This document shows, piece by piece, positions 47,391 to 63,964 of a DNA stretch of 64,000 nucleotides. The stretch is from Candidatus Aminicenantes bacterium. Its GTDB lineage: Bacteria > Acidobacteriota > Aminicenantia > Aminicenantales > UBA8522. Location of the stretch: the NCBI GenBank assembly GCA_017886205.1, contig JAFNEO010000012.1, positions 235,207 through 299,206 of the forward strand, given 5' to 3'. The notes below the pieces were generated by a model that was given only the letters and a program-made list of their open reading frames with translations, did no database searches and had not been told where the DNA came from. The translations under genes and the position numbers were made by a program. Position 1 is the first letter of the stretch. Every line of letters begins with the position of its first letter.

Positions 47391-47549
47391 GTAATAAGAT
47401 CACACCGGCCTGAGAATTCATCTTCATATCCCGCGTCTTTTGAGTATGTTGATATTTGTTCCCGGCTCGAGCTTAGCAGGGCGCAAAATGTGTACGCAAG
47501 TGTTGACACATTTGGCTGTAATGATAAAATATCTCTTAAGGTGATCACC

Positions 47550-48207: not shown

Positions 48208-48210
48208 GCC

Positions 48211-48248
48211 CGACGCCCCGAATTTGTTAAGTGTTAAGACCTGACCCC
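48211..48248. repeat. Degenerate REP family A half-site
   Basis: cgacgccccgaatttgttaagtgttaagacctgacccc. Confidence 0.7.
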
Positions 48249-48307
48249 GAAGGACCGAAGGAGGGCAATCCTTTAGCCTGGCGGTTATAATTGCCCTGGA
48301 AAAGGCG

Positions 48308-48937
48308 ATGACGCTGGTCAAGGAATATAAAGCCTACAGAAGAGCGTACAGGGAGATGAATCATAAAATTATGGAGAAGTATCTGAAGCATGATCAGCTT
48401 TTGAGATCAGCCAAGTTGCTCGGCGTTGTCCAGAGGGGCACTATGGTGTTCGAAAATGAGGAGGAAACAAACGTTTTGATGGATTTCGCCTTACATGAAT
48501 ATCGAGAGCACGACAAGAATGCAATCGCCCTCTACAGGGAGAAAATCGGCGGAGAGAGCGCCATGGAGAGGGCAATTTTGAACGCTCTGCTTTCCTCACA
48601 CACGTCATTGTTTAGAATTAGCGCTGTCTCGCCGTCAGAAAGTATCACGTCCTTAAGAGACCTCCTGAGTGAAGGGCAGCCGGTCAGACTCTTGGATATC
48701 GGCCTCAGCCAGTGCGCCACTCCAGGCTTCTTGATATTTGTCAGGCTCGTTCCATACAAGGACATGTTCATAACCTCCGGGATATCTTTCGTTTTTCCTC
48801 CCGGCCTGGAGAGATGTCTTCTTGGGAAGTATGAGGAGTTGTGCGGAAAAACCGAACCGGATGGGCTCTCGCTGGAGAGGTTTGTTTACTTTTTCAGGAG
48901 GAGCCGCGAAGATGGCCTGAGAGTCATTTATCAGTGA
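48308..48937 (+). CDS. Hypothetical protein (209 aa)
   Basis: Uninterrupted ORF in AT-richer accessory segment; no recognised motifs. Confidence 0.35.
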   Translation: MTLVKEYKAYRRAYREMNHKIMEKYLKHDQLLRSAKLLGVVQRGTMVFENEEETNVLMDFALHEYREHDKNAIALYREKIGGESAMERAILNALLSSHTSLFRISAVSPSESITSLRDLLSEGQPVRLLDIGLSQCATPGFLIFVRLVPYKDMFITSGISFVFPPGLERCLLGKYEELCGKTEPDGLSLERFVYFFRRSREDGLRVIYQ

Positions 48938-49028
48938 ACCTGAGCCATCAAGCGATCCTTATTACTTCATCTGTTTTGATCTTGCTTTATTCTAATAAAC
49001 GATTTTTAAATGAAAGAAAGAGTGCGCT

Positions 49029-49340
49029 ATGTGGTCGAAAAAGGAAAAGGACATTGCCCGGCGGGCTTTTGAGATGGCCCTGGAGAGAGAAGGCTTAGAG
49101 CTTTTAAGAAAGATCAAAGAGATGGCGCGTACGGCCGAGAATCGTAAAGATATCTGGCAGATCCACGATTTCCTCACGGAGAGAAGAACCGAAATCGATC
49201 AAAAGTATGATTATCGATATTCAGTGCTCATTCCTATTTTCGGCAGATTGGTCCGCGAAGAATGGATTAGACTCGATGAGCTTGAGGGTCTTGACGAAGA
49301 TAAAATCACGAAAATTAAAATAATGGCGAGTTTGGAGTAA
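49029..49340 (+). CDS. Hypothetical small protein (103 aa)
   Basis: ORF only. Confidence 0.3.
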   Translation: MWSKKEKDIARRAFEMALEREGLELLRKIKEMARTAENRKDIWQIHDFLTERRTEIDQKYDYRYSVLIPIFGRLVREEWIRLDELEGLDEDKITKIKIMASLE

Positions 49341-49453
49341 CCCATGGCTTTCATGGATCTGCTTGCCGAAGGCGAGGCCGGCAATAGAGCGCTGTCTTTC
49401 GCCACTCTCCATTTCCCTGTTATCGAATCGCCTTGGCCGCATCCGCTCGATGC

Positions 49454-49825
49454 TCACCTATATCGGCTGAGAATTCTCTCTCTATCCTCGTTCTCTTTGT
49501 CACCCTTGTAGTAAATTTCGATGAGCTCGACCCGATCCATTTCCTCGAAATAGGCATATACCACTCGAATTCCGGAATGGGCTCCTTTTCCTTTGAGCGC
49601 CCGGCAAGCGAATTTCCGGCCCTTGTAAACCTTTGGTCCTTGAATGCCAAGCTCCGCCATCTGCACAACCCCTTTGTTGTCAATCCTCAACTTATGGAAG
49701 AGTCCGAGCTCTGTGTTGATGAAATTGTCCAGGTCATCCTCTAGGGACCGGAACCTCTTGAGGAGCCTCTTCATGTCCCGCTCGAATTCCGGCAAGCGAA
49801 TAATTTCCTTAAACGGCGTCATCAT
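49454..49825 (-). CDS. RelE/ParE/HigB-like toxin (Gp49-like)
   Basis: C-terminal 'GIRVVYAYFEEMDRVELIEIYYKGDKE' toxin-fold signature; overlaps upstream antitoxin gene. Confidence 0.5.
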   Translation of the reverse strand: MMTPFKEIIRLPEFERDMKRLLKRFRSLEDDLDNFINTELGLFHKLRIDNKGVVQMAELGIQGPKVYKGRKFACRALKGKGAHSGIRVVYAYFEEMDRVELIEIYYKGDKENEDRERILSRYR

Positions 49826-50591
49826 ACTCCCGGACTGAATAAGCCGGTGCCCTGTAAAATACGGATTCGTACTCGATCGTTTTTCCCTCCTCAGTGGTCA
49901 GCCAGGGAACGTCGTTATGGGAATAATCAGTGATCTGACGGGCGTTCATGTCGGATAGCCTCCCCAGGACGTCGTTAATGATCTCTATCTCGCTGCCTTT
50001 CAACATGTTCAGGTCTGGCTTTCTCAGAGGCAGGTACTTTCTCTGAGGATATTCAAAATAATTCGCCTTAACTTCGACAATCACCCCATTAGCCATCATT
50101 TGATCCACGATTTTCCTGAATTCAAGGGGCGTCGGCCCATATTTGTTCTTCAGGTAAGTGGCGCCCATGAGCTGCTCCTCATACTTCTCGTAATAGTCAA
50201 AATCGATGAAATATAGGAGCTTATAAATGACCGTTTCGCCGATGGCGGGTTTTGCTCCCACCTTGTTGAGGATATAGATCAGTACTTCCTTGAATTTCCG
50301 GAGGTTCTTCTGGGGGATGTTAATTCTCATCCGGGGCATCGCTTCGGATCCATAGGCTTCCCGGCTTTCTCTGATCACGATTTGCGGCTCTTTATCTGGA
50401 TCGAGCAGGGTGTCCACAGACAGATTGAAGATTCCAGCTAATTTCCTAAGCTCCTCGGCGCACACCTTTCTCTCTCCGTTCTCAATCTGAGATATAGACG
50501 GGCGTGAAACACCGAGTTTCTCAGCCAAGGCCTGTTGGCTTAATCCAGTGGACTCGCGGATTTGCTTTATTCTTTGACCTAATGAATCCAT
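49809..50591 (-). CDS. HTH-XRE + Panacea (DUF4065/SocA-like) domain antitoxin
   Basis: N-terminal 'IKQIRESTGLSQQALAEKLGVSRPSISQIENGER' XRE HTH; C-terminal block 'VIYKLLYFIDFDYYEKYEEQLMGATYLKNKYGPTPLEF' resembling Panacea domain. Confidence 0.5.
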   Translation of the reverse strand: MDSLGQRIKQIRESTGLSQQALAEKLGVSRPSISQIENGERKVCAEELRKLAGIFNLSVDTLLDPDKEPQIVIRESREAYGSEAMPRMRINIPQKNLRKFKEVLIYILNKVGAKPAIGETVIYKLLYFIDFDYYEKYEEQLMGATYLKNKYGPTPLEFRKIVDQMMANGVIVEVKANYFEYPQRKYLPLRKPDLNMLKGSEIEIINDVLGRLSDMNARQITDYSHNDVPWLTTEEGKTIEYESVFYRAPAYSVREYDDAV

Positions 50592-50693
50592 ATTTCACTC
50601 CTAGGTTATAATTATAGATATGTTGGATAATATGTCAAGGCTATGTAAGAATATCGGACAAATCGAACCAGCAAGATATAGAGGGCAAAGACA

Positions 50694-50764
50694 GGGGATC
50701 AGGTCTGAATTCTTAACAAATTGAGGCGCCCCCTAGGATTTTTTGATTGTTGAGACCTGACCTC
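50694..50764. repeat. Degenerate REP family A doublet
   Basis: ggggatcaggtctgaattcttaacaa-N22-ttttgattgttgagacctgacc. Confidence 0.7.
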
Positions 50765-50922
50765 AAAAATCGATAATCCCCCCCGCGGCCGAGGCGGTAC
50801 GGTCGTCTTTATCCCACCTCTCCCCGAACTCAAGGAAACAAGCGAATACCTTATGAAATCCGGTTTCCGTCCGCTGTCTTGAAATAGCGGAACTCTTGTT
50901 TTATTAGGGCTTATCCGCTCAC

Positions 50923-51114
50923 TCACTGGCCGGGCGGAGGGATCTCCAGATCCCGACAGATCTTGCGCGCTAAAAAATCGTTTATTTCGGCATGTCTTGG
51001 CACTGTCGAAACCTTATATGTCCTTTCATTCAGATAAACCGAGTGGCTCCTGCCTTCCCGGAGCATAACGCATCCGTGTGCCTCCAGGAATCGGATCAAC
51101 TCCCTGCGCTTCAT
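50923..51114 (-). CDS. hicA: HicA-family toxin
   Basis: 'MKRRELIRFLEAHGCVMLREGRSHSVYLN' HicA signature. Confidence 0.7.
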   Translation of the reverse strand: MKRRELIRFLEAHGCVMLREGRSHSVYLNERTYKVSTVPRHAEINDFLARKICRDLEIPPPGQ

Positions 51115-51329
51115 GAAAGAGGGACTTCAATTTTTTCCCGAATGACGCTTTTGTCCGCGATTTCCTGCTCCGCGAGCTTTTTGTTGGCTTCTAGGACTAA
51201 GCAGACGGCTTCTCGAAGATTCCGGCGAGCTTCACTCAAGGTTTTTCCTTGCGTATTCGCCCCGGGCAATTCTTCTACAAAACCGACGTAGCCTTCCGGC
51301 ACCTTCATAAAGACGGCCGTGAACGACAT
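51111..51329 (-). CDS. hicB: HicB-family antitoxin
   Basis: 'MSFTAVFMKVPEGYVGFVEELPGANTQGKTLSEARRNLREAV'; SD agaggtg; overlaps hicA. Confidence 0.65.
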   Translation of the reverse strand: MSFTAVFMKVPEGYVGFVEELPGANTQGKTLSEARRNLREAVCLVLEANKKLAEQEIADKSVIREKIEVPLS

Positions 51330-51454
51330 CTTTGCACCTCTATTATGAATAGACGCTTTTCCTGCGGGTTTTCTCATTTTTTCCCTCGCCAGTTTAATAT
51401 ATCACAATTTCTCAAGGAATCATGGCCGAGCGCCTAAAGATCAGCAAAACGGAC

Positions 51455-51479
51455 TTATTGATTGTTGAAACCTAACCCC
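51455..51479. repeat. Degenerate REP family A half-site
   Basis: ttattgattgttgaaacctaacccc. Confidence 0.6.
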
Positions 51480-51530
51480 AAGTCCGCGGCGTAAACTTTT
51501 GTTGACATTTCCCTAACTTATTGTTATATA
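51470..51530 (+). promoter_or_regulatory. Promoter module copy 2 (AACCCCAAGTCCGCGGCGTAAACTTTTGTTGACA-N17-TATATA with TGn extended -10)
   Basis: TTGACA 51502-51507, TATATA 51525-51530. Confidence 0.55.
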
Positions 51531-51556
51531 GTCCCTTGCAGGGGCGTTAATAAGGG

Positions 51557-52651
51557 ATGCAAGGGGTCCTCGGCATCAAGCTCAAAAAAGCCCGCACCGA
51601 TCTGGGCCTCTCCCAGGCCGCTTTCGCCCGCGCGCTCGGCTTCTCCTCCGAATTCATCTCCCTCCTCGAGGCCGATAAAAGAGCGCCGTCACTCACCTCC
51701 CTGAACAAGATCGCTGCCTACCTCAAGAAAGACCTCGGCTACTTCTTCCAGGAGAAAGAAGGCGCCTTCAACATCCTCCTCCGGGGCGACGCCCTCAAAG
51801 GGCCCGAAGGCCTCGACGCCGCCTCCCAAGCCGTCCTCCAGCGCTTCAAACGATACTGCGACGACTATCTGAGGCTCGAACGCGTCGCCAACCGCGCCGG
51901 CTCCTCCGCCGGCCCCTCCCGCCGCCTCCCTCTCGCTCCCTTCTACACCAACATCTCCCCTGAGCGCCTGGCCGAAGAGGAACGCCGTCGCCTCGGTGTT
52001 GGCGATGAGTCCATCCGCGACATCTTCGCCCTCTCCGAGCTCAACGGCTGCCGCATCCTCCGCCTTCCCATCCCCAGCGGCGCCAAGCTCTCCGGCGCTT
52101 TCATCTTCCTCGAGGACAGGGAAGCGGCCTTCGCCCTCATCAACAGCGCCGACACACCCGGCCGCCAGGCCTTCACCGCCGCCCACGAATACTGCCATTA
52201 CCTCAAGGACCGCCACGAGGGGCCGCTCATCGAAAACCCCGATGTTTTCATCGACGAGTATGTCTCCCTCTACCATCCGCGGGAGAAATTCGCCCAGACG
52301 TTCGCGGCCTGCTTCCTCATGCCCGCCTCCAAGGTCCAGGCGATCATCGAGAAGGAATTCGGCGGCCGAAGGCTGACCTTCGACCATGTGCTCTACATGA
52401 AGCGGTATTTCGGCGTGAGCTTTGCCGCCATGCTGCGCAAAGTGAGGGAGCTGGGATTTGTGTCGGCGGCCCAGTTTGAGGATTATATCAAGCGCGATCC
52501 GGACAGCCGAGAGCGAGAGGTATTCGGGGCGAGGGGAAGGCGGAGGGCGAACGCCAGCCGGCCCATCTATTCTGACCGATACATGTTGCTTAAGGCTGAA
52601 GCCGCAAAGACGAAGCGCCAAACTTCGGATAGTGCGAAATCAAAAGGTTAA
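51557..52651 (+). CDS. Single-chain XRE-HTH / ImmA-IrrE (M78) metallopeptidase regulator (COG2856-like)
   Basis: N-terminal 'LKKARTDLGLSQAAFARALGFSSEFISLLEADKR' HTH; C-terminal 'TAAHEYCHYL' HExxH. Confidence 0.75.
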   Translation: MQGVLGIKLKKARTDLGLSQAAFARALGFSSEFISLLEADKRAPSLTSLNKIAAYLKKDLGYFFQEKEGAFNILLRGDALKGPEGLDAASQAVLQRFKRYCDDYLRLERVANRAGSSAGPSRRLPLAPFYTNISPERLAEEERRRLGVGDESIRDIFALSELNGCRILRLPIPSGAKLSGAFIFLEDREAAFALINSADTPGRQAFTAAHEYCHYLKDRHEGPLIENPDVFIDEYVSLYHPREKFAQTFAACFLMPASKVQAIIEKEFGGRRLTFDHVLYMKRYFGVSFAAMLRKVRELGFVSAAQFEDYIKRDPDSREREVFGARGRRRANASRPIYSDRYMLLKAEAAKTKRQTSDSAKSKG

Positions 52652-52702
52652 TATTGCCTGCCAAAAAAACCACCATGGAAGAGATCTTGGTATCGATTTC
52701 CA

Positions 52703-52734
52703 GAGCGCCGGTTCGATCCCGGTCAGCTCCACCA
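52703..52734 (+). other. tRNA/tmRNA 3'-end-like fragment (T-arm GCCGG-TTCGATC-CCGGT + acceptor CAGCTCC + A + CCA); candidate att/integration scar
   Basis: No matching 5' acceptor strand (GGAGCTG) or cloverleaf upstream. Confidence 0.4.
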
Positions 52735-52937
52735 GATTATTTCCCTTGTTTCCCTTGGCATTTGAGCATTTCCGTGATTCTGCTTTTTTAGACTGAGTTA
52801 GCTAGACTGAGCCATTTTGGGCAGTTTTGTCCACACCGTGTCCACACGGGGAGAGGTCTGTTTTCAGTTGACTTGCTCCCCAATTCCTTGCTACCCTTTA
52901 ACCACACCTGCGTGAATCTAAACGTAAGGAGTAGGCA

Positions 52938-53453
52938 ATGATATGGAAAAAACCGGACGCGGACAACCCTCCAACCCAGACTCCCATGCAACCGCCGCCA
53001 CAGCCATCGGCCCCGCGGAGTCAGCCGCCGCTTGCCAAGGAACGGGCTTTGATCGGTCCTTCGATCGAGATCAAGGGCACCCTCTCGGGCGGCGAGGATC
53101 TGTTTGTGGAGGGCCGGGTTGAAGGAAAGATCGAACTGGCTCAGCACAGTGTCACAATCGGCACGAGCGGGCGCATTAAGGCTGATATCCAGGGACGGAG
53201 CATCGTCGTTATGGGAGAGGTCGAAGGTAATCTCGATGGGTCAGAGCAGATTATCTTGCGGCAATCCAGCAAGGTGCGAGGCAACCTTGTTGCCCCGCGT
53301 GTGAGTCTGGAGGACGGGTCGGACTTCAAGGGCAGCATCGACATGACTTCCAAACCTGCAGTGGAAGCAAAACCGTTACATACAGATAATACTGCAGTGA
53401 AGCCTCCGTCACAGCAGGTGCTTAGACAGGATAGGACTGGGGATAAGGTCTGA
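52938..53453 (+). CDS. Bactofilin-family protein
   Basis: 'IEIKGTLSGGEDLFVEGRVEGKIELAQHSVTIGTSGRIKADIQGRSIVVMGEVEGNL' beta-helical repeats. Confidence 0.6.
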   Translation: MIWKKPDADNPPTQTPMQPPPQPSAPRSQPPLAKERALIGPSIEIKGTLSGGEDLFVEGRVEGKIELAQHSVTIGTSGRIKADIQGRSIVVMGEVEGNLDGSEQIILRQSSKVRGNLVAPRVSLEDGSDFKGSIDMTSKPAVEAKPLHTDNTAVKPPSQQVLRQDRTGDKV

Positions 53454-53517
53454 TTCCAACGGTGCGAGACGGCCGCCACCCGGCGGCCTGCAATGAGAAC
53501 TTTCGACGCAGCATCCC

Positions 53518-54126
53518 ATGACTCTGAGTGCTCCTCGAGAAACCCAGGTTTCGCCGGCAGTGCACAAATCGCTCGGACTGAATGCGCTGCTGAACCCGGT
53601 GCGGGGCGATCGAAGTTACTCCATCCTGGACCTCGGCCCCGCCCTCGAAGCGAACGTGCGGTTCTGGTCGCAATTCTCCTGCTGGCTGCATATCCACGAC
53701 TTTTATCGCAGTTACCGGGAGTGGAAGGCAGCGGTTGTGCCGGAGGAGGAGTCCGAGGAGGCGGCGTTTTCCGCACTGCTTCCGTTCAGTGACGAAACGG
53801 TCTTCGACATTATCCTTGCCTGGGACATTTTTAATTACTTCGATCTGCGGGAACTCGAGGCGCTCGTTCAGAGGCTGAGCCGCTGGTGCCGTCCGGGGAC
53901 CAGGCTTTTCGCGCTGATCTCATCTCTGCCGGACATCTCTGTGTCACCCACGATGTTCAGAATTCTCAACCGCGAACAGATGATCTACGAAATACCAACC
54001 CAGGATACGAGACCATGCCCGCGCCATCAGCCGCGGGATATCGCCAGACTCATGGCACGATTCACTGTATCCAGTTCCTTCCTGTTGCGTCACGGCATCC
54101 AGGAGTACGTTTTCGCATTCAAATAG
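53518..54126 (+). CDS. Putative class I SAM-dependent methyltransferase-like protein
   Basis: Motif I-like 'SILDLGPALEAN', motif II-like 'FDIILAWDIFNYF', 'GTRLFALIS'. Confidence 0.4.
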   Translation: MTLSAPRETQVSPAVHKSLGLNALLNPVRGDRSYSILDLGPALEANVRFWSQFSCWLHIHDFYRSYREWKAAVVPEEESEEAAFSALLPFSDETVFDIILAWDIFNYFDLRELEALVQRLSRWCRPGTRLFALISSLPDISVSPTMFRILNREQMIYEIPTQDTRPCPRHQPRDIARLMARFTVSSSFLLRHGIQEYVFAFK

Positions 54127-54591
54127 GAGAACCCGCGTTCGTTCCGTTTCTGCTCGCCGCCTGCCGGAGATTAAGCAGGTTCGGAGTCGAGATGCTGGCG
54201 TCCGGCGCTCTTGTGAGACTCGGAGTGCTCGGCGGTCGGGGGTACGCTGCCTCACCTCTAAGACTCGAAGGCTCGAAAAATCTCTAAACACAGAGACTGA
54301 CCTGCCCCCGCAAGGGATCCCGGGGCACTAACGCCGCTGGACGCAAGAAATTCCCTCAGTCTCCTGAGAAACTTCGCTGAAAGCTTCTTCCTCTCAACCT
54401 TATGGGCGAGGTCGATGATCGGAATCCTCTTGTTTACGTCCTTGAGCCGTTTCAGCTTGGTCCATAATTCAACCCACCGCCTATCGCCCGGGCGCCCATA
54501 CGCACGCGACGGACCCCATTTTTTATTGGCTAAATGATAGTACCGCTCCTCTTCAAACGTCCGTTTTATTGAGTTTGAGGAATATCCGCAA

Positions 54592-54650
54592 TTGACATAA
54601 ATAATCTATATGTAAATTATTATTTGACAAATAGTCTATCCATATGTAAA
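54592..54650. repeat. Two ~25-bp imperfect direct repeats (TTGACAtAAATAaTCTATaTATGTAAA / TTGACAAATAGTCTATCCATATGTAAA)
   Basis: AT-rich gene-free segment. Confidence 0.4.
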
Positions 54651-54727
54651 AAAGGTAAGAACTTCGAGATCAGAAAAAGCCCCAAGGTCTATCTCTGCGA
54701 CGAGGTCGTTCAGCGTCGTTTCCAGAT

Positions 54728-54768
54728 ACTTTACCGACCTCGATAATACCCTTTGCGGATTCCAGATC
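54728..54768. repeat. Repeat family C copy
   Basis: tactttaccgacctcgataataccctttgcggattccagatc. Confidence 0.6.
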
Positions 54769-54912
54769 TAAATATCAATACCAGATCTGGACCTCCGAAG
54801 TAGGTGGCAAGCACACAACCCACGGAACTGAGGCCGCAGAGAAACAAAAATGGAAACCAGGACGTATACATAGTGTACGGTGACGTTGGCATTTCGGCAT
54901 AAGGAAGAAACA

Positions 54913-56256
54913 ATGCCGGGGTCGAGGAAAATCCCATCCCGCTGGGTTCTTGCCCTATGTCTCATCGCCGGTCCCTTATTTACCTCTTCCGGGGTTGGAA
55001 ACTCGGCCGATCCCTCCGCTCAGACTTCCTACGACCACGAAAACGGAGCCGACCGTCCATATTCCCTTCTCGAACGGCTCTACAAAGACCATCGGTATTT
55101 CGAGCTCCGCGACGCCGTCGAGCTGATGAAAGACCTGCCTGCGCCCGAGATGGAGTTCTACCGGGGGGCGGCCGACGAGGTCTTCAACCGGCTGGATTCC
55201 GCCGTCGCTCATCTCCGGAACTATCTTGAGGGAGGCGCGGCCGCGGGCCTCGACCGGCCGCTGGCCCAAGAGGCCTGGGCTCTTCTCCGTGACGCTTACA
55301 GGAGGGCGGGCCAGTATCGGAAATCGGCCGAAATCAGACGCTTTATCCTCGAGCGCTACGGGACCGGCCTGGACGCCGGCGGGAAGACCAATCGCGGGAG
55401 CGGGAGCGTCATCTGGTCCGCCCTGGCCGATGTCCCGCCTCAAACTGTCGAGGTCCTGGGAGCGTCGGATATTGCGATGGAGAATCGCAACTTTCCTGTC
55501 CGCATCAAGGACCGGATTTTTTATTTCTCCTATGATACCGGCGCCAGCTTCTCGGTCCTCTATCAATCGGTCGCGGAGGAATTGGGCCTCGCCCTTTTGG
55601 GGCAAGGGATAAAAATCCAGGCGGCCACGGGCAAGTGGGTTGACGCCCGGCTGGCCGTCGTCCCCGAGATTCGATTGGGCCAGGCCGTCATCCGGAACGC
55701 GGTCTTCCTGGTGCTGCCCGATGATTTCTTCCCCGTGCGGCGGGTCCGCGACGGCGTCGAACGCCGTGGCTTCATCGGCACTCCCGTCCTGGCCGCCCTC
55801 AAGGAAATCACCGAGACCCGGGACGGCCGTTTCATCATCCCGGCCTCGCCGCAACCTCGTCCCGTTCAGAACATGTGCTTCTTCGGGACCATGCCCATCA
55901 CCGAGGTCGTCCACCGGGGCGCTCGGCTGTTGTTCTTCGTGGATACGGGGGCTTCAGTGACGGACCTTTATCCGACATTCTTCCGCTTCTACCGGGGAGA
56001 GATTCAATCCCGTACGAAACCCGTGCCCGTCAGGATGCGCGGAGTCGGCGACGAGCGGACGGTCAGGACGCATATCCTGGACGAGTTCGCCTTCAAGGCG
56101 GGCGGCCGCGACCTCGCTCTGAGGAAGGTTATGGTCCATACCCAGGTCACCCATTCCATAACGGACATTTTCCACGGCAGGATCGGCCTTGACGTCCTGA
56201 CGCACTTCTCGCGGATGACGCTCAACTTCGAGTCCATGAGCTTTATCCTGGAATAA
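54913..56256 (+). CDS. Secreted protein with two tandem retropepsin-like aspartic protease domains (two D-T-G-A-S motifs)
   Basis: Signal peptide; 'FYFSYDTGASFSVLYQ' and 'LLFFVDTGASVTDLYP'; SD aaggaag before ATG 54913. Confidence 0.6.
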   Translation: MPGSRKIPSRWVLALCLIAGPLFTSSGVGNSADPSAQTSYDHENGADRPYSLLERLYKDHRYFELRDAVELMKDLPAPEMEFYRGAADEVFNRLDSAVAHLRNYLEGGAAAGLDRPLAQEAWALLRDAYRRAGQYRKSAEIRRFILERYGTGLDAGGKTNRGSGSVIWSALADVPPQTVEVLGASDIAMENRNFPVRIKDRIFYFSYDTGASFSVLYQSVAEELGLALLGQGIKIQAATGKWVDARLAVVPEIRLGQAVIRNAVFLVLPDDFFPVRRVRDGVERRGFIGTPVLAALKEITETRDGRFIIPASPQPRPVQNMCFFGTMPITEVVHRGARLLFFVDTGASVTDLYPTFFRFYRGEIQSRTKPVPVRMRGVGDERTVRTHILDEFAFKAGGRDLALRKVMVHTQVTHSITDIFHGRIGLDVLTHFSRMTLNFESMSFILE

Positions 56257-56416
56257 CGACTATTTGCTTTTGTCGAGAACAGCCTGAATCGAATTCGGGA
56301 AGGATGCTCAAAGGCAGTCAGCACCTGCACGAGGTCGCGCCCGGGGACGTCTCCGGCCGTCGTCGCTGACAAGATCATGGCCCTCGTTCATCGGCACCAG
56401 GGTCCCCGAACTTCTA

Positions 56417-56506: not shown

Positions 56507-57568
56507 ATGCACGGTGTCTTAGGGTCCAAGCTCAGAAAAGCCCGCACCGATCTAGGCCTCTCCCAGGCCGCTTTCGCCCGCGCGCTCGGCTTCTCCTCCG
56601 AGTTCATCTCCCTCCTCGAGGCCGATAAAAGAGCGCCGTCTCTCACCACCCTGAACAAGATCGCCGCCTACCTCAAGAAAGACCTCCACTACTTCCTCCA
56701 GGAGAAAGAAGACGCCTTCAACATCCTCCTCCGGGGCGACGCGCTCAAAGGGCCCGAAGGCCTCGACGCCGCCTCCCAAGCCGTCCTCCAGCGCTTCAAA
56801 CGCTACTGCGACGACTATCTGAGGCTCGAGCGCCGCGCCAACAGCCGCCTCCCTCTCGCTCCCCTCTACACCAACATCTCCCCCGAGCGCCTGGCCGAAG
56901 AGGAACGCCGCCGCCTTGGTCTCGGCGATGAGCCCATCCGCGACATCTTCGCCCTCTCCGAGCTCAACGGCTGCCGTATCCTCCGCCTTCCCATCCCCAG
57001 CGGCGCCAAGCTCTCCGGCGCTTTCATCTTCCTCGAGGACAGGGAAGCGGCCTTCGCCCTCATCAACAGCGCCGACACACCCGGCCGCCAGGCCTTCACC
57101 GCCGCCCACGAATACTGCCATTACCTCAAGGACCGCCACGAGGGGCCGGTCATTGAAAACCCCGATTTCTTCATCGACGAGTATGTCTCCCTCTACCATC
57201 CGCGGGAGAAATTCGCCCAGACGTTCGCGGCCTCGTTCCTGATGCCCGCCTCCAAGGTCCGGGCGATCATCGAGAAGGAATTCGGCGGCCGCAGGCTGAA
57301 CTTCGACCATGTACTTTACCTTAAGCGGTATTTCGGCGTGAGCTTTGCCGCGATGCTGCACAGGGTGAGGGAAATGGGATTTGTGACGGCGGCCCAGTTT
57401 GAGGACTATATAAAGCGCGACCCGGACAGCCGCGAGCGAGAGTTGTTTGGGGCGAGGGGAGGGGAGAGGGCGAGCGCCGGCCGTACCGTCTTCTCCGACC
57501 GGTATAAGCTGCTTCAGCTCGAGGGTATGAGGCAAAAGCGCCGAATCCCCAATAGAGGAAAACGATAA
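56507..57568 (+). CDS. Single-chain XRE-HTH / ImmA-IrrE (M78) metallopeptidase regulator, second intact copy
   Basis: ~85-90% identical to 51557-52651 product incl. HEYCHYL. Confidence 0.75.
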   Translation: MHGVLGSKLRKARTDLGLSQAAFARALGFSSEFISLLEADKRAPSLTTLNKIAAYLKKDLHYFLQEKEDAFNILLRGDALKGPEGLDAASQAVLQRFKRYCDDYLRLERRANSRLPLAPLYTNISPERLAEEERRRLGLGDEPIRDIFALSELNGCRILRLPIPSGAKLSGAFIFLEDREAAFALINSADTPGRQAFTAAHEYCHYLKDRHEGPVIENPDFFIDEYVSLYHPREKFAQTFAASFLMPASKVRAIIEKEFGGRRLNFDHVLYLKRYFGVSFAAMLHRVREMGFVTAAQFEDYIKRDPDSRERELFGARGGERASAGRTVFSDRYKLLQLEGMRQKRRIPNRGKR

Positions 57569-57681
57569 GGGGTATTTGTGCTTGTCCGAAAAATCACCCG
57601 GAAAGGTGATTGTCAGGCGCCCAACGTTTGCCCTATTTTAAGAATTGGGATTCGTCAAGGCCTTGCTTTTGGGAAATAACC

Positions 57682-58173
57682 ATGAAAATCCTCGACGATT
57701 CTGTCAACTCGCCTTCGATTAGGGAGAGCCTCAGGATCGACTTGCCCCAGGTCTTGCCCCCCGGGGAATGCAGAAACGCCGTTTATGACGCAAACCTGGC
57801 TGCCCATTTTATCGCGGGCCCAGTGAACCGGGCCCAATACCTAGCCCAGATAAGCGCCGAGCAGAAGGTGCGGGAAAGGCCGCTGTGCTCTGTGGCGGCG
57901 ACCCATGAACAGGAGCTGGATAGGATGGCTAAGATTATTCGCCAGCGGCAAGTCCTCAACGAACGAATCGGCGTCATCGGAGTTCCAGGAGATGGCAGTG
58001 CTAAGGGGGGGTCGAATACAACGGGCAACTTACCATTCAGACGAGCGGTGCCTGGAAGTCTGGTGAGCAACATCGGGCTGGTGGGGGTGGGCGGGGCGAA
58101 CAGGATAATTAAAAGCGCCGGCAGGGTAAGGACCCGGACGACGATGAATTTTCGGTGCGGTGAAGAGATTTAA
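57682..58173 (+). CDS. Hypothetical protein
   Basis: ORF only; start chosen at MKILDDSV (track start 57610). Confidence 0.3.
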   Translation: MKILDDSVNSPSIRESLRIDLPQVLPPGECRNAVYDANLAAHFIAGPVNRAQYLAQISAEQKVRERPLCSVAATHEQELDRMAKIIRQRQVLNERIGVIGVPGDGSAKGGSNTTGNLPFRRAVPGSLVSNIGLVGVGGANRIIKSAGRVRTRTTMNFRCGEEI

Positions 58174-58276
58174 TATTAAACGATATGTAAGAGAATTATT
58201 GCATGGTAGACATAAGTAATATCCTTGGCGGCTATTATTAATATTTGTTCTTTATGGTGAAAAGAATTTGAGAAAA

Positions 58277-58906
58277 ATGCCAGAGTGCAATAACCGGGAT
58301 TGTGCGAGCGCGATAATTGTGACTAATTCCTCACGGAATTTTGGTAATCCTTCATTTGCTGTGACAAGGGCACTTGAATGTGGATTTATTAAATATGGGC
58401 AAAATATTCTTGAAATCGGATCTGGGAATTTACGCAATTCGTCCTATATCATCAAGAACATAGATCGGGTCGGCGTCAGCGCTTATGAGATTATGAGCAC
58501 GGTGCAAAAATATGCAAGCGCGTATAATACTTTTAGAAAAAAGGGAGGAATTATACTCCATAGCTTTCCAAATGGGCTGATTTATGATGCTATCGTTTGC
58601 ACGTTCGTTTTGGAAACAGTCTGTCCACAGGCAAAACGAACCTTCTTGCTTAAGAAAATCAGGCAGAGGTTAAAATCCGATGGGATTTTGGTTGCTTCTT
58701 TTCGCGGGGTTTCTGGGGTCATTGGAACAGAATATAAAGAATGTTCTAAAAAGGAAGGATGGCTGACGCCGTTGCATACATTTATAAAGCCTTATACGAT
58801 TAAAGAGGCAGACTCTCTGCTTAAATCCTGTGGGTTTACAAAAATAGTTTTTTTGCAGGATTATCGCGTTAACACTCCACGAAACATTCATCTCGTTGCA
58901 ATCTAG
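58277..58906 (+). CDS. Small class I SAM-dependent methyltransferase
   Basis: Motif I 'ILEIGSGNLRNSSYI', acidic 'VSAYEI', motif II 'YDAIVCTFVLETV', motif III 'DGILVASF'; AT-rich. Confidence 0.55.
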   Translation: MPECNNRDCASAIIVTNSSRNFGNPSFAVTRALECGFIKYGQNILEIGSGNLRNSSYIIKNIDRVGVSAYEIMSTVQKYASAYNTFRKKGGIILHSFPNGLIYDAIVCTFVLETVCPQAKRTFLLKKIRQRLKSDGILVASFRGVSGVIGTEYKECSKKEGWLTPLHTFIKPYTIKEADSLLKSCGFTKIVFLQDYRVNTPRNIHLVAI

Positions 58907-58914
58907 GAGTTAAT

Positions 58915-59940
58915 ATGGAAAGAAAATGGCTTGAAGCATTTTATAAAGAATGCGGACGTGAAGTATCATTAGCCTATAATGTACTAAATCAAACAAATAA
59001 TTGGGGGATTACCCTTGCAGTGGCCGTGGTCGTTACATGCTTCTTGGGTACTGCTCGGGTTGAGGGAAGAACTATTTATCTCACTTATCCTACGCTTCTG
59101 CAATGGTACCTAGTTATTTTCGGATGGATCATCATGGTCCGATTCTTCGTTCGCTCTGCCCTTGGATTGGTCAATATGTATCGTTGGAATGAATTAATTA
59201 ACTCGACATGTAAGGTTCTTTCTCTTCCAGAATCACATCCAGATACTCCTCTTTTAAATAGAAACCTCGCGAAAAAGATCGAGGCTTACTTTTTCAGATT
59301 TAGAAGCCCCAAAACAAGACGGTTTATAGTCTGGCACAACCTAAAACTCATGTACCTTTGGTTCTTTATAATCCTTCTGTGTCTGTTCACTTGGGGAATA
59401 ATTGTCCTAGAAAAAACCATTTTGTTCTGGGTTGGGCTACTTCTTTTTATTATACCTACAATCATAGAAATAGTCTGGTTTAATAGATGGTACGGCCTAC
59501 AATACCAAGGCTTAGAACTGGAAGTGGAAAAGGACTTGAAAGATATATTAAATGAAAAGCGCGAAAGTATTCCTGAAATAGGTCGGGATGTCATGATATT
59601 AGGTTTCTGTGAGGATGGTCCTTTTAAACATGCGAAAACACTCCTCACGAATCCCACGGTGAAGTGGCTTCCATGGGCCTACCAATCACACGAAATACAT
59701 CCTTTTGTCCTTGCACAACTCTCTGATAATGAGAAGCTGGATAGTCAAAGAATCGCATTTGCGTCCTGGGAAAAGGGATTCATTGGTCCCGTGGATATCA
59801 TCAGATATGGCAGGATCGACTATCATAAATTCGTTTCCGGCCATTTACAGCTCACAGTTATGCTTGATGAATACAATGGAAGCTTGCCAACTCAACGCAT
59901 TGAAATTAGAAACCCCAAAACATTTTGCTATTTCCTATGA
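58915..59940 (+). CDS. Polytopic membrane protein of unknown function
   Basis: >=5 hydrophobic helices; 9-nt gap from MTase gene. Confidence 0.45.
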   Translation: MERKWLEAFYKECGREVSLAYNVLNQTNNWGITLAVAVVVTCFLGTARVEGRTIYLTYPTLLQWYLVIFGWIIMVRFFVRSALGLVNMYRWNELINSTCKVLSLPESHPDTPLLNRNLAKKIEAYFFRFRSPKTRRFIVWHNLKLMYLWFFIILLCLFTWGIIVLEKTILFWVGLLLFIIPTIIEIVWFNRWYGLQYQGLELEVEKDLKDILNEKRESIPEIGRDVMILGFCEDGPFKHAKTLLTNPTVKWLPWAYQSHEIHPFVLAQLSDNEKLDSQRIAFASWEKGFIGPVDIIRYGRIDYHKFVSGHLQLTVMLDEYNGSLPTQRIEIRNPKTFCYFL

Positions 59941-59969
59941 TAAATGAAAAGCATAATTAGGAGAAATAA

Positions 59970-62888
59970 ATGGGCGTACTAACCGGCTGCAAACCTCGTA
60001 AGGAAGTCCTTAAGGGCGATCTCGATGATGCCATTTTTGCCGCGGACTTTGGTGACCTCATTTCCGGCAAGGCACCAAAAGTCTACGGAGATGCAAAGAC
60101 CTTCTTTCAAAACACACACCCCGCCAAACAGCTCTGTAAAGTCATCGAAGTGGTTTTCGAGCGATTGGCCGACCCGAAGGAAGCTGGAGCAACGGTTCGA
60201 CTGAGTACAGGTTTTGGCGGAGGAAAAACGCACACGCTGATGGCCCTATGGCATCTGGCCCAAAATATCGAGAACCTGGGCATGGGCACGGAACTCCTTC
60301 CCGCTGCGGGCCGGCCGAAATCTGTTACTGTAGCCGCGCTCGACCTCAGCAAAGCCGGACAGCCGGTTTTTTCCCAGCATGGGAATACTAAAATCCATAG
60401 CTTCTGGGGAGAGATCGCTTTTCAGCTTGGCGGTGATAAAGCCCTCAAGGCACTCGGAGAAGCGGATCATCCCGAAAAGCAGCCCACCGAAGAACTCATA
60501 TCGAAATGGTTTCCCTCCGGTCCTGTCCTTGTCCTGATTGATGAGGTCGTTGTCTATATGGCGAGTCTTTCTGAACAGGGGCAGGGCAATCTTCTCGCAT
60601 TTCTAAACAAGCTCTCATCCACAGTCTCGAAGCGTCCCCGAACGGTCTTTGTCGTCACTGACCCGGCTGACCAACGAGCCTATGCTAAGCAAGCTCAGAA
60701 AATCGGCGATGCCATGCTGGCCGCTGCAATCCGTCTCGACGATCTCTTCGGCCGCAGGATGACGGACTTCGATCCCATAGGAGAAGAAGCCGCTAGAGTG
60801 ATCGTCCGGCGCTTGTTCGAAAAAGTTGATCCTGCATCCACCCAGGAAGCCTCTGCCTCTTATCATTCCCTGTATGAGCGAGTTTCACAGGAATCTCCGG
60901 GAACGATCGCCCCTGCCGCCGCCTCTTCAGATTACGCCAAGAGGATCGTTGAAAGTTACCCCTTCCATCCCAGGCTGATGGATACCGCACAGGGTCGGCT
61001 CGGAGCTCTCCAGGAGTTCAATAAAAGCCGTGGCACCCTCAGGCTTTTTGCCCGCATATTGCGATCCATATGGGAATCCGGCCAGGACCTGGAGCTCATC
61101 ACTGCGGGCGATGTGGATTGGTCCAGCCCCCGCATTCAGGCGGACCTTCTCCACCGTTTGAACCGGGACAATTTTAAGGCTGCTGTATCCGCGGACGTAG
61201 AAAAACATGCCCGAGAGCTGGACGGAACCAATGTCCGTGGCGTGCACGTCCGAGTAGCTTCGGCGCTTCTTCTGGAGAGCATTCCCATGCAGTCTAACAG
61301 CGGGCTTGACCCGGCTGAGCTTAGCCTGGCTGTCCTTCGGCCCGACGAAGCCGGCGCCGAGCCAAATGAAGCTCTCGACCGTCTCGTCGGTGTCTGCTGG
61401 CATACATATCCGCTCGCCGGCGGCCGCGGGTGGCAGTTCCGTTATGAGCCGAACATCATTAAGCAGATCGAGGAGCGGATGAATGATATTTCCCTTGAAG
61501 ATGCCCGTGGCCGAGTTCACGGCGAGGCTCAGGGCTACTTCCAGGGCCCGGCATTTCGCCTCTCAGCCTGGCCTGCAACCGCCCGTCAGGTGCTCGAATC
61601 TCCCGATCTTCAACTCGCCCTCTGTGAAAATGAACAGATTGCGCGAGCCGTTTGTGCTTTTTCGGATGACGCCAATCCCCAAGCCCCGACCCCTCGCAGA
61701 TTCCGTAACGCCATCTTGGCGGTCACGGCAACCCAGGCCTCTCTGAATTCAGCTGTCGAGCGGGCACAGCGGCTGATGGCGGCCGAAGCCATTGAGAAGG
61801 ATTACAAAACTGGAGAGCCCGGCAAGTTAATTCGGGATCAGCTCCAGAGGATTATGCCGGAGCTCAGAAGGCAGTTCCGCGTCCAAACCTGTCGGGCATT
61901 CGATCGCGTCATCTTCGCCGGTGGCGCTTCCTACCCGATAGAAGAAAAATATCAGGTTTCCGAAGAAATGATTATGCAAAGAGCCCAAGGCCAGGCATGC
62001 CTGCGAAGATACCTTGAAGAAAAGGGTCTGATCTATCTTCCAGGGGATGCCGTCGATGTCAGCCGATTTGTCAAGGAAATCCTTCCGGGCACAACGCCTC
62101 TCGCTGACCAACCCGGAGTCTATACCGCCAAGGCTGTTCACGAACGCTTTTTGTCTGCCCCCGGCCTCCGGCTTATTTCGGACGGTGCCGTCGTTCGTCA
62201 AACGCTCTTGAAATCCGTTAGGGAAGGCAAGATCGTAATCAGACTTGTTGATGTTGGGCGGGCCTACGATAAGAATGGATGCGTCGAGGGGCCCGAAAGC
62301 CGCCGAAGGCGGATTCCGGGAGAATTGACGACACTCTCTCTAGACGAGTCTGTCCAAATAACGCTATCGGGAACGGACACAGCAGCGCTCTGGGTTAAAG
62401 AGGATAAGCCAGGGGAAAAACCGATACCAGGTGGGGTTAAGTATGAACCGCCACGCCCAACCGAAACCAAAGTCCGGGCCTCCACCTGGCCGAAAGCCGA
62501 GGAATATGCTAAAGAAAGGCCTCTGCTAAGAATTGAGCTCGTTGCGCATTCTCCGGTTGAAGCGCAATCACTGCTTCCTCTAGCCCAGCCGTTCGGAGCG
62601 GAGAGCATTTCGTTATCCGTAGATGTCAGCGGTGACCTCAAGGATGGAGGCAAGACCTACTTCCGCATGGAAGACGTTAAACCGACTCATGGATTGAAAC
62701 CGCTCGAAATAGCCCAGCGGCTATATACCGCAACATCTGAAGGCGCCGCTTATGAGGCAATTCTCGTTCTCGGCTTCGGCGCGTCTGGCCGCACGGGGCT
62801 CGATGCCCAATTCCGAAAGGCTTCAGAGGATGCCCCTGAAGGCATTGCCCTGAACGCCGACTTTGAAAAGCCGATAGGAGGCCGCTAA
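59970..62888 (+). CDS. Large P-loop NTPase (~972 aa), DUF499/COG1483-like predicted defence ATPase
   Basis: Walker A 'TGFGGGKTHTLMAL', Walker B-like 'VLVLIDEVVVYM'; long C-terminal extension. Confidence 0.55.
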   Translation: MGVLTGCKPRKEVLKGDLDDAIFAADFGDLISGKAPKVYGDAKTFFQNTHPAKQLCKVIEVVFERLADPKEAGATVRLSTGFGGGKTHTLMALWHLAQNIENLGMGTELLPAAGRPKSVTVAALDLSKAGQPVFSQHGNTKIHSFWGEIAFQLGGDKALKALGEADHPEKQPTEELISKWFPSGPVLVLIDEVVVYMASLSEQGQGNLLAFLNKLSSTVSKRPRTVFVVTDPADQRAYAKQAQKIGDAMLAAAIRLDDLFGRRMTDFDPIGEEAARVIVRRLFEKVDPASTQEASASYHSLYERVSQESPGTIAPAAASSDYAKRIVESYPFHPRLMDTAQGRLGALQEFNKSRGTLRLFARILRSIWESGQDLELITAGDVDWSSPRIQADLLHRLNRDNFKAAVSADVEKHARELDGTNVRGVHVRVASALLLESIPMQSNSGLDPAELSLAVLRPDEAGAEPNEALDRLVGVCWHTYPLAGGRGWQFRYEPNIIKQIEERMNDISLEDARGRVHGEAQGYFQGPAFRLSAWPATARQVLESPDLQLALCENEQIARAVCAFSDDANPQAPTPRRFRNAILAVTATQASLNSAVERAQRLMAAEAIEKDYKTGEPGKLIRDQLQRIMPELRRQFRVQTCRAFDRVIFAGGASYPIEEKYQVSEEMIMQRAQGQACLRRYLEEKGLIYLPGDAVDVSRFVKEILPGTTPLADQPGVYTAKAVHERFLSAPGLRLISDGAVVRQTLLKSVREGKIVIRLVDVGRAYDKNGCVEGPESRRRRIPGELTTLSLDESVQITLSGTDTAALWVKEDKPGEKPIPGGVKYEPPRPTETKVRASTWPKAEEYAKERPLLRIELVAHSPVEAQSLLPLAQPFGAESISLSVDVSGDLKDGGKTYFRMEDVKPTHGLKPLEIAQRLYTATSEGAAYEAILVLGFGASGRTGLDAQFRKASEDAPEGIALNADFEKPIGGR

Positions 62889-63316
62889 TGAATATCAGAC
62901 GCGCCTCGTTCGCTCTTCGTGTTGTCCGGCGGCGCGGCGGAGACGCGGCCATCCTCTATCGGAGACGCTTAACCGGCAAGGGCGAGGAACGGCTTGATCG
63001 AGTGGCCGCCGTCTCACCGCTTGCTTTTTCTGCCTCCCAAAGCCTCCTCCGGGCGGCCGTTCGAGCTAATTCCGGACCTGCGGCCAAACTGACCTATGGG
63101 CCTTTCCATCCGCTTGATGACGATTGGGGGGCCAGAGTCGCTGCTTTTGCCCTGATTTCCCGGGGACTACGAAACGCAGAACGCCTTCATCGGGCTGCTT
63201 TCCATCTTCAACATGCCGATGCCACGGAGGCTGCTTGGTGGCTGGGAATCATGGAGAAGCCGGACGGAATGCGAGCCGTCCGTGCCCTGCGGATTCTTAC
63301 AGAGGCGGTGAAATGA
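62888..63316 (+). CDS. Small basic Arg-rich protein (142 aa), unknown
   Basis: Start overlaps ATPase stop (TAATG); 4 nt before methylase gene. Confidence 0.35.
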   Translation: MNIRRASFALRVVRRRGGDAAILYRRRLTGKGEERLDRVAAVSPLAFSASQSLLRAAVRANSGPAAKLTYGPFHPLDDDWGARVAAFALISRGLRNAERLHRAAFHLQHADATEAAWWLGIMEKPDGMRAVRALRILTEAVK

Positions 63317-63319
63317 AGA

Positions 63320-63964
63320 AGAAAGAAGAACGCCCGAAAGTCCTAATCGAAGAGTGGTTACCTGCCGCTGCGATCGGCGTAGAGTGCATCAGAGAGCGTT
63401 CAACGGGGCAAAATCCGCCAAATGCGAGGCTTCACGTCTGGTGGGCGCGCCGTCCTCTCTGCGTATCCCGTGCGGCTGTCCTTGCATCTTTGCTCCCGGC
63501 TGACTTTCCCCGGAATATCTTCGAGCGTCTCCTTGGCTTCTGGGGAACTTCAGACCAGGTCATAGAAGCCCAAAAAGCTCTTGATTATGCTAAGGAAGTG
63601 GGCGAAAAAATCGATAACCCTCACGGAGAAAGAGCATTTAAAAGAGCTCTCCGTGAGGGCGATTTTGACAAAGCGCATGAGGCGGCTCGAGCGGTCTGGG
63701 GAACCGATATTGTTGTTATGGATCCCATGGCGGGAGGCGGATCGATCCCACTTGAATCAGCACGGCTCGGGTTCACAACCTATGCAAATGAATACAATCC
63801 GGTCGCGTGTTCAATATTAGAGGCTACAGTTGATTATCCATTTAGGTTTGGTGAGAGATTGGGGCAACGAACGCGTGTATGGGGCGCTGAATTAAGGAAA
63901 AGATTCAGCGGGCGTATGCAGCACTTCTATCCCAAGTCTGGAATATTGCCTCCGCATTGCTACG
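63320..63964 (+). CDS. N6-adenine DNA methyltransferase with DUF1156-type N-terminus (3' end outside window)
   Basis: 'NARLHVWWARRPLCVSRAAVLASLL' hallmark block; motif I 'VMDPMAGGGSIPLE'. Confidence 0.65.

Follow-up and report, generated by a model that had tools for sequence, protein, structure and literature searches.

A probable Hma/BR-type defence core joined to an upstream methyltransferase/membrane-protein gene pair in Candidatus Aminicenantes

Introduction

Toward the 3' end of a 64,000-nucleotide (nt) stretch of contig JAFNEO010000012.1 from a Candidatus Aminicenantes bacterium (the whole stretch is referred to here as the window), five closely packed genes encode a small S-adenosylmethionine (SAM)-dependent methyltransferase (MTase), a membrane protein, a DUF499 ATPase, a small DUF7680 protein and a DUF1156 adenine methylase (Table 1). 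They are preceded by a gene in which an XRE helix-turn-helix (HTH) domain is fused to an M78 metallopeptidase domain. A first-pass annotation, made from the sequence of the window, described the arrangement as a candidate uncharacterised methylation-based defence operon behind a CapH/CapP-like regulator. The question raised by the locus is whether these genes constitute one new system under dedicated control, or a known core to which further genes have been joined. Our analysis favors the second answer: the locus is probably a four-gene core of the Hma/BR family, with an autonomous MTase/membrane-protein pair fused upstream of it, and the XRE/M78 gene is unlikely to be its dedicated regulator.

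The core family has been described before. Hma (helicase, methylase, ATPase) was identified as a candidate system in 26 phyla (Payne et al. 2021, PMC8565338), and the group has since been renamed DUF499-centred BREX-related (BR) systems and divided into three types (Rakesh & Krishnan, NAR 2026, PMC12839542). In Type 2 BR, an N-terminal HKD endonuclease replaces the TUDOR domain of the helicase, and this HKD-helicase is accompanied by a standalone DUF3780 gene, the latter in 98% of taxa (PMC12839542). The Halomonas HmaA helicase-nickase alone protected E. coli from T4 (Liu et al. 2024, PMC11232893). Inserted genes are present in about two thirds of hma loci (PMC11232893), and this "embedding" has served to discover further defences, among them the GmrSD-like HEC-06 (2024 preprint, 10.1101/2024.01.29.577857). 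The view of the DUF499/DUF1156 system as uncharacterised and unnamed is therefore outdated, as it corresponds to Hma in PADLOC (PMC8565338) and to BR (PMC12839542), with its helicase-nuclease tested (PMC11232893). What remains fair is to say that, for this family, neither the ATPase nor the methylase has a demonstrated role.

Results

The DUF499/DUF1156 core and its downstream partner

The PADLOC, Pfam and NCBIfam scores given throughout are profile matches of single proteins. The 972-amino-acid (aa) protein matches Pfam DUF499 (E 4.5e-24) and PADLOC HmaC (E 3.4e-69) and contains the Walker A and Walker B motifs GFGGGKTH and VLVLIDE. The methylase matches Pfam DUF1156 (E 9.9e-18) and, at its full length of 986 aa, PADLOC HmaB (E 1.1e-87). 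Its motif I (DPMAGGG) lies inside the window and its motif IV (DPPY, at residue 526) outside. These matches bear out the proposal of a methylation-based defence locus with a DUF499 NTPase and a DUF1156 adenine methylase, and each motif cited for it (GFGGGKTH, VLVLIDE, ARLHVWWARRP and DPMAGGGS) is present in the window open reading frames (ORFs). Sequence searches of the PDB returned nothing for the DUF499 protein or the DUF1156 MTase.

The region beyond the window was read from a 176-kb JGI metagenome contig, Ga0494780_000011, encoding the same 972-aa protein (loci L001, L002; loci used for comparison carry L numbers). Against the window, L001 shows 2 mismatches in 14 kb and L002, compared over 6.8 kb, shows none. 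The methylase gene extends to position 16304 of L001, which would be 66273 in window coordinates, and is followed after 14 nt, just past the window end, by a gene for a 1211-aa HKD-nuclease/SNF2 helicase. This is the remaining nuclease/helicase partner that had been anticipated beyond position 63964. The protein is comprised of an N-terminal phospholipase D (PLD)/HKD domain (HAKFGIVTDD...GSGN, residue 161; PLDc_2 27.9 bits), an SNF2 ATPase (GMGKT, DESH) and Helicase_C; it matches PADLOC PLD_Helicase (5.2e-73) better than HmaA (1.7e-43), and its closest solved structures are RapA proteins. The HKD motif is retained in 39 of 42 helicase homologues. An ordinary restriction-modification (R-M) system with a canonical restriction endonuclease just outside the window had been named as the finding that would speak against the defence proposal; the partner is instead the family's own HKD-SNF2 nuclease-helicase, and no HsdR/Res of types I or III and no type II restriction endonuclease was found at the locus, where the other nuclease is a GmrSD type IV enzyme. 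The latter, 605 aa long, is encoded after the helicase (L001 20084-21901, about 6.1 kb past the window end), carries the motifs DGQQR and EHIIP, and matches PADLOC HEC-06 (8.5e-85), an experimentally validated family. Its gene lies outside the block that is conserved at 82% identity in a sister locus (below), and in L009 a different gene, of 282 aa, occupies that place. It is followed by a gene for a 207-aa protein with no family match (L001 22048-22671).

All three components of the PADLOC definition of Hma (HmaC, HmaB and HmaA on the same strand and within a few genes) are present, and the helicase has the N-terminal HKD endonuclease by which Type 2 BR is recognized. NCBI labels the proteins of the DUF3780 form as "anti-phage-associated" DUF499, DUF3780, DUF1156 and phospholipase-D-like proteins, for instance on the A. 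baumannii plasmid NZ_CP050915. The corresponding NCBIfam equivalog cut-offs are missed here by the DUF499 (154 of 1200 bits), DUF1156 (198 of 1000) and phospholipase-D (350 of 1100) proteins, and DUF499_antiphage, with E 3.4e-45, is likewise below its cut-off. As judged from these profiles, the core proteins of the window are homologous to the NCBI anti-phage families but outside the equivalogs. Because the NCBI models match so far below their cut-offs, the core is filed as Hma/BR, with a Type-2-like architecture in which DUF7680 stands in place of DUF3780.

DUF7680 marks a common form of the core

The 142-aa protein is the component that sets this core apart. It has no match to DUF3780 even at E<=10, and when DUF7680 was compared with genuine DUF3780 by hhalign the probability was 0.3%, although the predicted topology is similar. 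The AlphaFold2 (AF2) model of DUF7680 contains 3-4 strands and 5 helices at a predicted local distance difference test score (pLDDT) of 71.

DUF7680 homologues form 874 protein clusters and occur in at least 80 species. A survey of one genome per species by a DUF7680 alignment scan yielded 80 loci, distributed over Acidobacteriota, Planctomycetota, Chloroflexota, Verrucomicrobiota, Pseudomonadota and others. A DUF499 gene lies directly upstream in 76 of them, a DUF1156 methylase gene downstream in 62 and an HKD-helicase gene in 43, the missing partners being mostly accounted for by contig ends. The co-occurrence expected of a genuine system is thus conserved, with the order DUF499, DUF7680, DUF1156, HKD-helicase recurring across the 80 reference genomes. 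The identical four-gene order is also found on RefSeq plasmids of Rhodococcus, Sinorhizobium, Nostoc, Leptolyngbya and Roseomonas; on all five the small protein is DUF7680 (E down to 4e-47), annotated as "hypothetical".

In 31 of 45 loci, DUF7680 and the methylase are separated by inserted genes, among which an NYN-like gene recurs; this matches the "embedding" habit of Hma (10.1101/2024.01.29.577857; PMC11232893). The copy in the window is the compact form, without an insert. The NYN/LabA-like insert (VDGQN...EKGVDV; about 215-245 aa) is present in at least 9 loci (L016-L019, L022, L027, L028, L045, L058, L072) and resembles the HEC-09 class; NYN genes also lie near the Rhodococcus and Sinorhizobium plasmid systems. 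On two cyanobacterial plasmids, VapBC pairs are located between the DUF1156 methylase and the SNF2 helicase (L098 9998-10641, L099 9803-10482).

DUF7680 as a term is not mentioned in the literature searched. The DUF7680 form is abundant but undescribed, and its undetectable kinship to DUF3780 leads pipelines to annotate DUF7680 as "hypothetical". In terms of sequence and gene order, the core is a common but undescribed variant, be it a new member or a minor variant, of a known and widespread defence family.

Boundaries and composition of the window genes

The five co-directional ORFs are on the plus strand where the first-pass annotation placed them, save that the methylase gene starts at the ATG at 63313 and not at 63320; it does run past the window end, as reported. 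With regard to the spacings, the 29-nt gap and the TAATG overlap stand, whereas the first gap is 8 nt and not 9, and the 4-nt spacer before the methylase gene does not exist, its start codon and the DUF7680 stop codon overlapping as ATGA. The AT-richness noted for 58.2-60 kb is a real drop in GC content (0.38-0.41 over 58.25-60.0 kb compared with 0.54-0.66 on either side), but it covers the genes of the small MTase and the membrane protein only; from the DUF499 gene onwards the GC content equals that of the flanks (0.54-0.60). It marks the two-gene add-on and not the defence system itself.

The methyltransferase/membrane-protein pair

The small MTase matches Methyltransf_11/12/23 only below the Pfam gathering scores, and as far as its sequence tells, it is not a recognizable DNA methylase. 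A 17-bit PADLOC match suggested a relative of mad2; this was rejected, as mad2 is the N6-DNA methylase of MADS and only the Rossmann fold is common to both. The membrane protein has no match in Pfam, PADLOC or NCBIfam, its family has none in the plasmid or phage collections, and PDB sequence searches returned nothing for the small MTase or the membrane-protein profile. In the AF2 model (pLDDT 85.6), the membrane protein has a long N-terminal helix, four transmembrane (TM) helices (residues 1-191) and a C-terminal beta-rich domain (residues 227-340), with no significant structural or sequence neighbour. Invariant residues of the family include R76, R80, N87, R90-W91-N92, E185, C232, G235-P236, R297 and D302. 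The membrane-protein family comprises 49 clusters and that of the small MTase 9. In L011 (8001-9021) two genes take the place of the single membrane-protein gene, the first encoding 222 aa with the TM region and the second 119 aa with the C-terminal domain; of the metagenome homologues, many are only 213-235 aa long and consist of the TM part, and a distant form from soil likewise shares the TM domain and lacks the C-terminal domain.

The genomic contexts of the pair were collected from the neighbourhoods of divergent homologues and from 58 further metagenome loci. In these, the MTase gene invariably comes first, followed immediately by the membrane-protein gene, and the two are paired in about 50 of the 58 metagenome loci, the remainder being mostly cut by contig ends. 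Homologues of either protein are present in none of the 80 DUF7680 reference loci, in agreement with the earlier impression that the small MTase and the membrane protein are foreign to the DUF499/DUF1156 system.

Seven contexts can be distinguished. The six-gene block as in the window recurs in L009/L010, L104 and L107-L109; the sister block spans 11.7 kb at 82% nucleotide identity, beginning 20 nt inside the small MTase gene and ending at the helicase stop. In the second, an HNH endonuclease gene and the pair precede a Type IIG enzyme (PADLOC 4e-295), an HKD-Snf2 protein and a GajB-like UvrD protein (L004, L110), and in the third, HNH and the pair are followed by Type I HsdM/S/R and PifA (L105, L112, L118/119). 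Other neighbours of the pair are an N6_N4 MTase with a PLD nuclease (L007, L116), an MmeI-like enzyme, here on an integrase island (L106, L122), and an HKD-helicase (L127). Finally, it stands alone among housekeeping genes (L005/L115, L011-L014, L124), and the tested neighbours of these stand-alone pairs have no PADLOC match. The GC content of the pair is below that of its flanks in 8 of 9 contexts. On the strength of these arrangements, we conclude that the pair is probably an autonomous, obligate and horizontally mobile two-gene module that tends to head SAM-dependent restriction operons. In one lineage it would have become fused to the 5' end of an Hma/BR system and would now travel with it as a six-gene block.

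Where the pair is followed by a Type I or Type IIG system, it is always directly preceded by a homologous HNH_2 endonuclease gene, which gives an HNH-MTase-TM trio (L004 8275-9342, L105 624-1553, L110, L112, L118/119). The HNH proteins of the Type IIG and Type I contexts are 53% identical, and the HNH domain weakly matches PDB 6yex. Between L001 and L004, the two proteins of the pair are 49% and 54% identical and the 207-aa protein (L004 20337-20960) 61%, with different cargo in between, which suggests that the pair and the 207-aa gene are conserved flanks of a cargo-swapping hotspot. In L005/L006 (13106-20451; Candidatus Saccharicenans), adjacent genes for proteins of 1112 and 1330 aa, without Pfam or PADLOC match, lie 2 kb downstream of the pair.

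The XRE/M78 gene and the helicase scar

The protein encoded upstream of the pair matches Pfam HTH_3 (7.6e-12) and Peptidase_M78 (1.3e-14), with an intact HExxH motif (HEYCH). It matches 16 PADLOC RmrA models (best 2.1e-33), capP at 7e-22 and capH at 6e-7, as well as the NCBIfam "spr1629 family repressor/antitoxin" (3e-16, below cut-off). The likeness drawn earlier to CapH/CapP does not hold in this form, as the gene encodes a single fused HTH-M78 protein of RmrA type and not a separate pair. A paralogue of 85.6% identity, which also matches RmrA, is encoded 5 kb upstream at 51557-52651; the duplication covers the gene and about 85 nt upstream only, at 88.6% nucleotide identity. A third fragment of 100 nt, 94% identical, is located at 47280-47379. 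The XRE/M78 copies precede unrelated genes, as if marking cassette boundaries in the island.

Between the XRE/M78 gene and the small MTase gene lies the region termed orf163. Only its residues 1-100 have homologues, aligning to about positions 170-270 of minimal UvrD-like helicases of some 400-430 aa; pieces of this helicase are found in three frames and its N-terminal ATPase half is missing. A role for orf163 as a RosmerTA toxin or as an operon member was considered and rejected once it proved to be a helicase remnant. An intact helicase gene occupies the position of the remnant in L104/L108, which implies that the XRE/M78 copy recently replaced the 5' half of the helicase gene; in L009 an IS21 element and other genes are found there.

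A fused XRE-M78 gene is present in none of the 55 DUF7680-type loci with enough upstream sequence (jackhmmer on the upstream ORFs), and the sister block of 82% identity and a Stutzerimonas DUF3780-type locus lack it as well. The idea of the XRE/M78 gene as a conserved regulator of the operon is not supported, given its absence from the sister block and from 55 of 55 related loci, its origin as a paralogue copy and the helicase scar that intervenes. Judging by these comparisons, XRE/M78 is probably a recently duplicated island gene of RosmerTA-antitoxin type and not the dedicated regulator of the operon.

Upstream island

The region 47400-56300 of the window is rich in toxin-antitoxin (TA) and regulator genes. 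Among the genes of this region that are listed in Table 1, the HTH proteins alone have a PADLOC match.

Table 1. Genes of the locus and of the island upstream of it (window coordinates unless stated otherwise)
Feature	Coordinates	Strand	Basis or remark
HTH + SocA_Panacea protein	49809-50591	minus	
HicA/HicB	L001 954-1408, about window 50923-51377		
Bactofilin	52938-53453		
202-aa protein	53518-54126		MTase-like ILDLGP motif
Retropepsin-like aspartic protease	54880-56256		
Fused XRE-HTH + M78 metallopeptidase	56507..57568	+	Pfam HTH_3 + Peptidase_M78; HEYCH intact; operon neighbour
orf163 region, decayed UvrD-like helicase remnant (ancestor ~400-430 aa)	57682..58157	+	homologue alignment
Small class-I SAM-dependent MTase, 209 aa	58277..58906	+	sub-gathering Methyltransf_12/23/11 matches; GC 0.40
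Membrane protein, 341 aa, four TM helices	58915..59940	+	family unassigned; AF2 model
DUF499 STAND/ORC-type AAA+ ATPase (HmaC / BrxC-like), 972 aa	59970..62888	+	Pfam, PADLOC, NCBIfam
DUF7680 small alpha+beta protein, 142 aa	62888..63316	+	Pfam DUF7680 2.1e-7
DUF1156 N6-adenine DNA MTase (HmaB), first 229 codons of 986 aa	63313..64000	+	Pfam, PADLOC

Discussion

If the core functions as the literature on its family would predict, the methylase would tag a specific motif in the host DNA, the BrxC-like ATPase together with DUF7680 would assemble or license a scanning complex, and the HKD-SNF2 protein would translocate on unmarked DNA and cut it. Several observations weigh against this picture and against the reading of the locus as an Hma/BR core joined to an autonomous pair. 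Overexpression of HmaB left T4 infectivity unchanged (PMC11232893), and because of this result and of the protection given by HmaA alone, the R-M-like model is unproven for the Hma family. The HmaA form in that published test was of Type 1, with a C-terminal PD-(D/E)xK nuclease, and not the HKD form. As DUF7680 has no detectable homology to DUF3780, the placement with Type 2 BR rests on architecture. Scans of the locus for promoters and terminators performed no better than on shuffled sequence, and methylation, restriction and co-transcription at the locus are all inferred. About half of the contexts of the pair contain no recognizable defence gene, and the distant soil form, with its TM domain only, has no R-M neighbours. 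Lastly, an XRE-M78 gene does lie directly upstream of the distant DUF3780-type system in Acinetobacter (A. baumannii).

This last observation, together with the PADLOC matches of the XRE/M78 protein to capP and capH, the tight spacing and co-orientation of the genes and the retention of six genes as a block in several lineages, would fit a single new system of five or more genes, in which the MTase and the membrane protein are integral and the XRE/M78 protein exerts control after DNA damage in the fashion of CapH/CapP. We consider such a system very unlikely, and the comparative sequence data largely refute it: the pair is missing from 80 of 80 related systems and is found alone or with unrelated R-M types, the regulator is missing from the sister blocks as well as from the 55 related loci and the Stutzerimonas locus, its gene is a recent paralogue copy that truncates a helicase gene, and the fused protein fits RmrA better than CapP. 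With no such gene in the 55 DUF7680-type loci, and with the DUF3780-type loci split between Acinetobacter, which has one, and Stutzerimonas, which has none, dedicated control of the CapH/CapP kind is unlikely. The XRE/M78 protein might instead form a RosmerTA-type toxin-antitoxin defence module of its own with a neighbouring gene. The match to RmrA, which is its best in PADLOC and extends over 16 models, the spr1629 match, the intact HExxH motif and the RmrA match of the paralogue are all in keeping with this, but there is no RmrT-like toxin next to the gene, the downstream ORF is a helicase pseudogene, and the neighbours of both paralogues have no PADLOC match; we regard such a module as improbable.

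What the pair does is harder to judge, and the evidence divides over three readings. Our preferred guess, which we infer from its contexts, is that the pair most likely serves SAM-dependent restriction systems as an accessory or second-line module, the membrane protein being its effector. Stated more fully, the pair would be an undescribed accessory that shares a transcript with the Type I, Type IIG and Hma/BR operons it heads and supplies a second-line abortive membrane effector, the SAM-binding protein acting as sensor and the membrane protein as executioner; the trigger would be phage anti-restriction, such as SAM depletion or Ocr-like decoys, that disables the main system. In this specific form the proposal is tentative and has a low probability. 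A housekeeping or envelope function, for example the methylation of a lipid, quinone or membrane protein, with incidental adjacency to R-M genes, is somewhat doubtful. It would account for the contexts, about half of the total, in which the pair lies among metabolic genes (such as those for carbamoyl-phosphate synthase, FeoAB, histidine biosynthesis and trehalose synthesis), for the soil form without R-M neighbours and for the resemblance of the MTase to small-molecule or protein MTases and not to DNA MTases. It is, however, at odds with six R-M-adjacent architectures in some 49 clusters, which is far above chance (a rough estimate puts the share of genes within two genes of an R-M system at under 1-3%), with a GC content below that of the host in 8 of 9 contexts and with the recurrence of the HNH-MTase-TM trio before both Type I and Type IIG systems. 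Less probable again than the accessory proposal is a TA-like addiction module, in which the membrane protein is the toxin and the MTase the antidote, and which stabilizes mobile islands and travels as a hitch-hiker alongside R-M cargo, taking no direct part in phage defence. The pair is an obligate two-gene unit with a patchy distribution and persistently low GC content, TA modules are common in such loci (VapBC in L098/L099, HicAB in the window) and L106 lies on an integrase-bearing island. On the other hand, neither protein resembles a known TA family, TA toxins are not usually as large as this 341-aa protein with its four TM helices and conserved soluble domain, and the tendency of the pair to sit at the 5' end of R-M operons, separated by gaps of 24-38 nt, suggests co-expression over hitch-hiking.

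The core has already been named, is represented in PADLOC and NCBIfam and has been surveyed over thousands of taxa, so that another copy adds little. What is new here is a single lead, namely that the pair may be an accessory used by restriction systems in general. If it were a guard or backup effector, it would represent a membrane-acting layer in R-M immunity and provide a handle on how such systems cope with anti-restriction.

PrrC, embedded in the type Ic EcoprrI locus, exemplifies a second-line module tied to an R-M operon. Auxiliary or backup effectors have also been catalogued around BREX/BR systems (PMC12839542). The pair is like these in its location, within or heading SAM-dependent R-M operons of several unrelated types, and differs from them in having no sequence or fold similarity to the known modules and no nuclease or ATPase domain. 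The XRE/M78 protein shares with RmrA of RosmerTA the fusion of an XRE-HTH to an M78 (ImmA/IrrE-type) zinc peptidase with intact HExxH; with CapH/CapP it shares the XRE-HTH and the M78 zinc peptidase, which often adjoin defence genes, although here the two are fused. In contrast to both, it has neither a toxin partner that could be found nor a conserved operon linkage.

For the core, the comparison with Type 3 BREX (BrxC, PglXI, BrxHII, PglZ, BrxA, BrxF) shows a homologous ATPase, methylase and RapA-like SNF2 helicase (PMC12839542), as is also seen in the PADLOC BREX matches of the methylase (PglX|PglXI, 2.6e-21) and the helicase (BrxHI|BrxHII, 3.4e-51). The HKD nuclease fused to the helicase sets the present locus apart, and none of the genes recorded for the 22.9-kb locus is a PglZ, BrxA or BrxB/F. 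The distance to the Acinetobacter DUF3780-type system is considerable, with an MTase identity of only about 23%. Relative to the Hma system of Halomonas, the models HmaC, HmaB and HmaA are all matched by genes on one strand, and the readiness of the family to take in defence genes is reflected in the adjacent GmrSD/HEC-06-like gene; the differences are the N-terminal HKD/PLD nuclease in place of the C-terminal PD-(D/E)xK nickase of Halomonas HmaA, the additional DUF7680 gene and the upstream MTase/membrane-protein module. Type 2 BR has the same gene order of ATPase, small alpha+beta protein, N6-MTase and HKD-nuclease/SNF2 helicase, the same DUF1156 N-terminus and insert between motifs I and IV of the MTase, and the same predicted R-M-like logic, and it differs from the core described here in carrying DUF3780 at the position that is taken by DUF7680.

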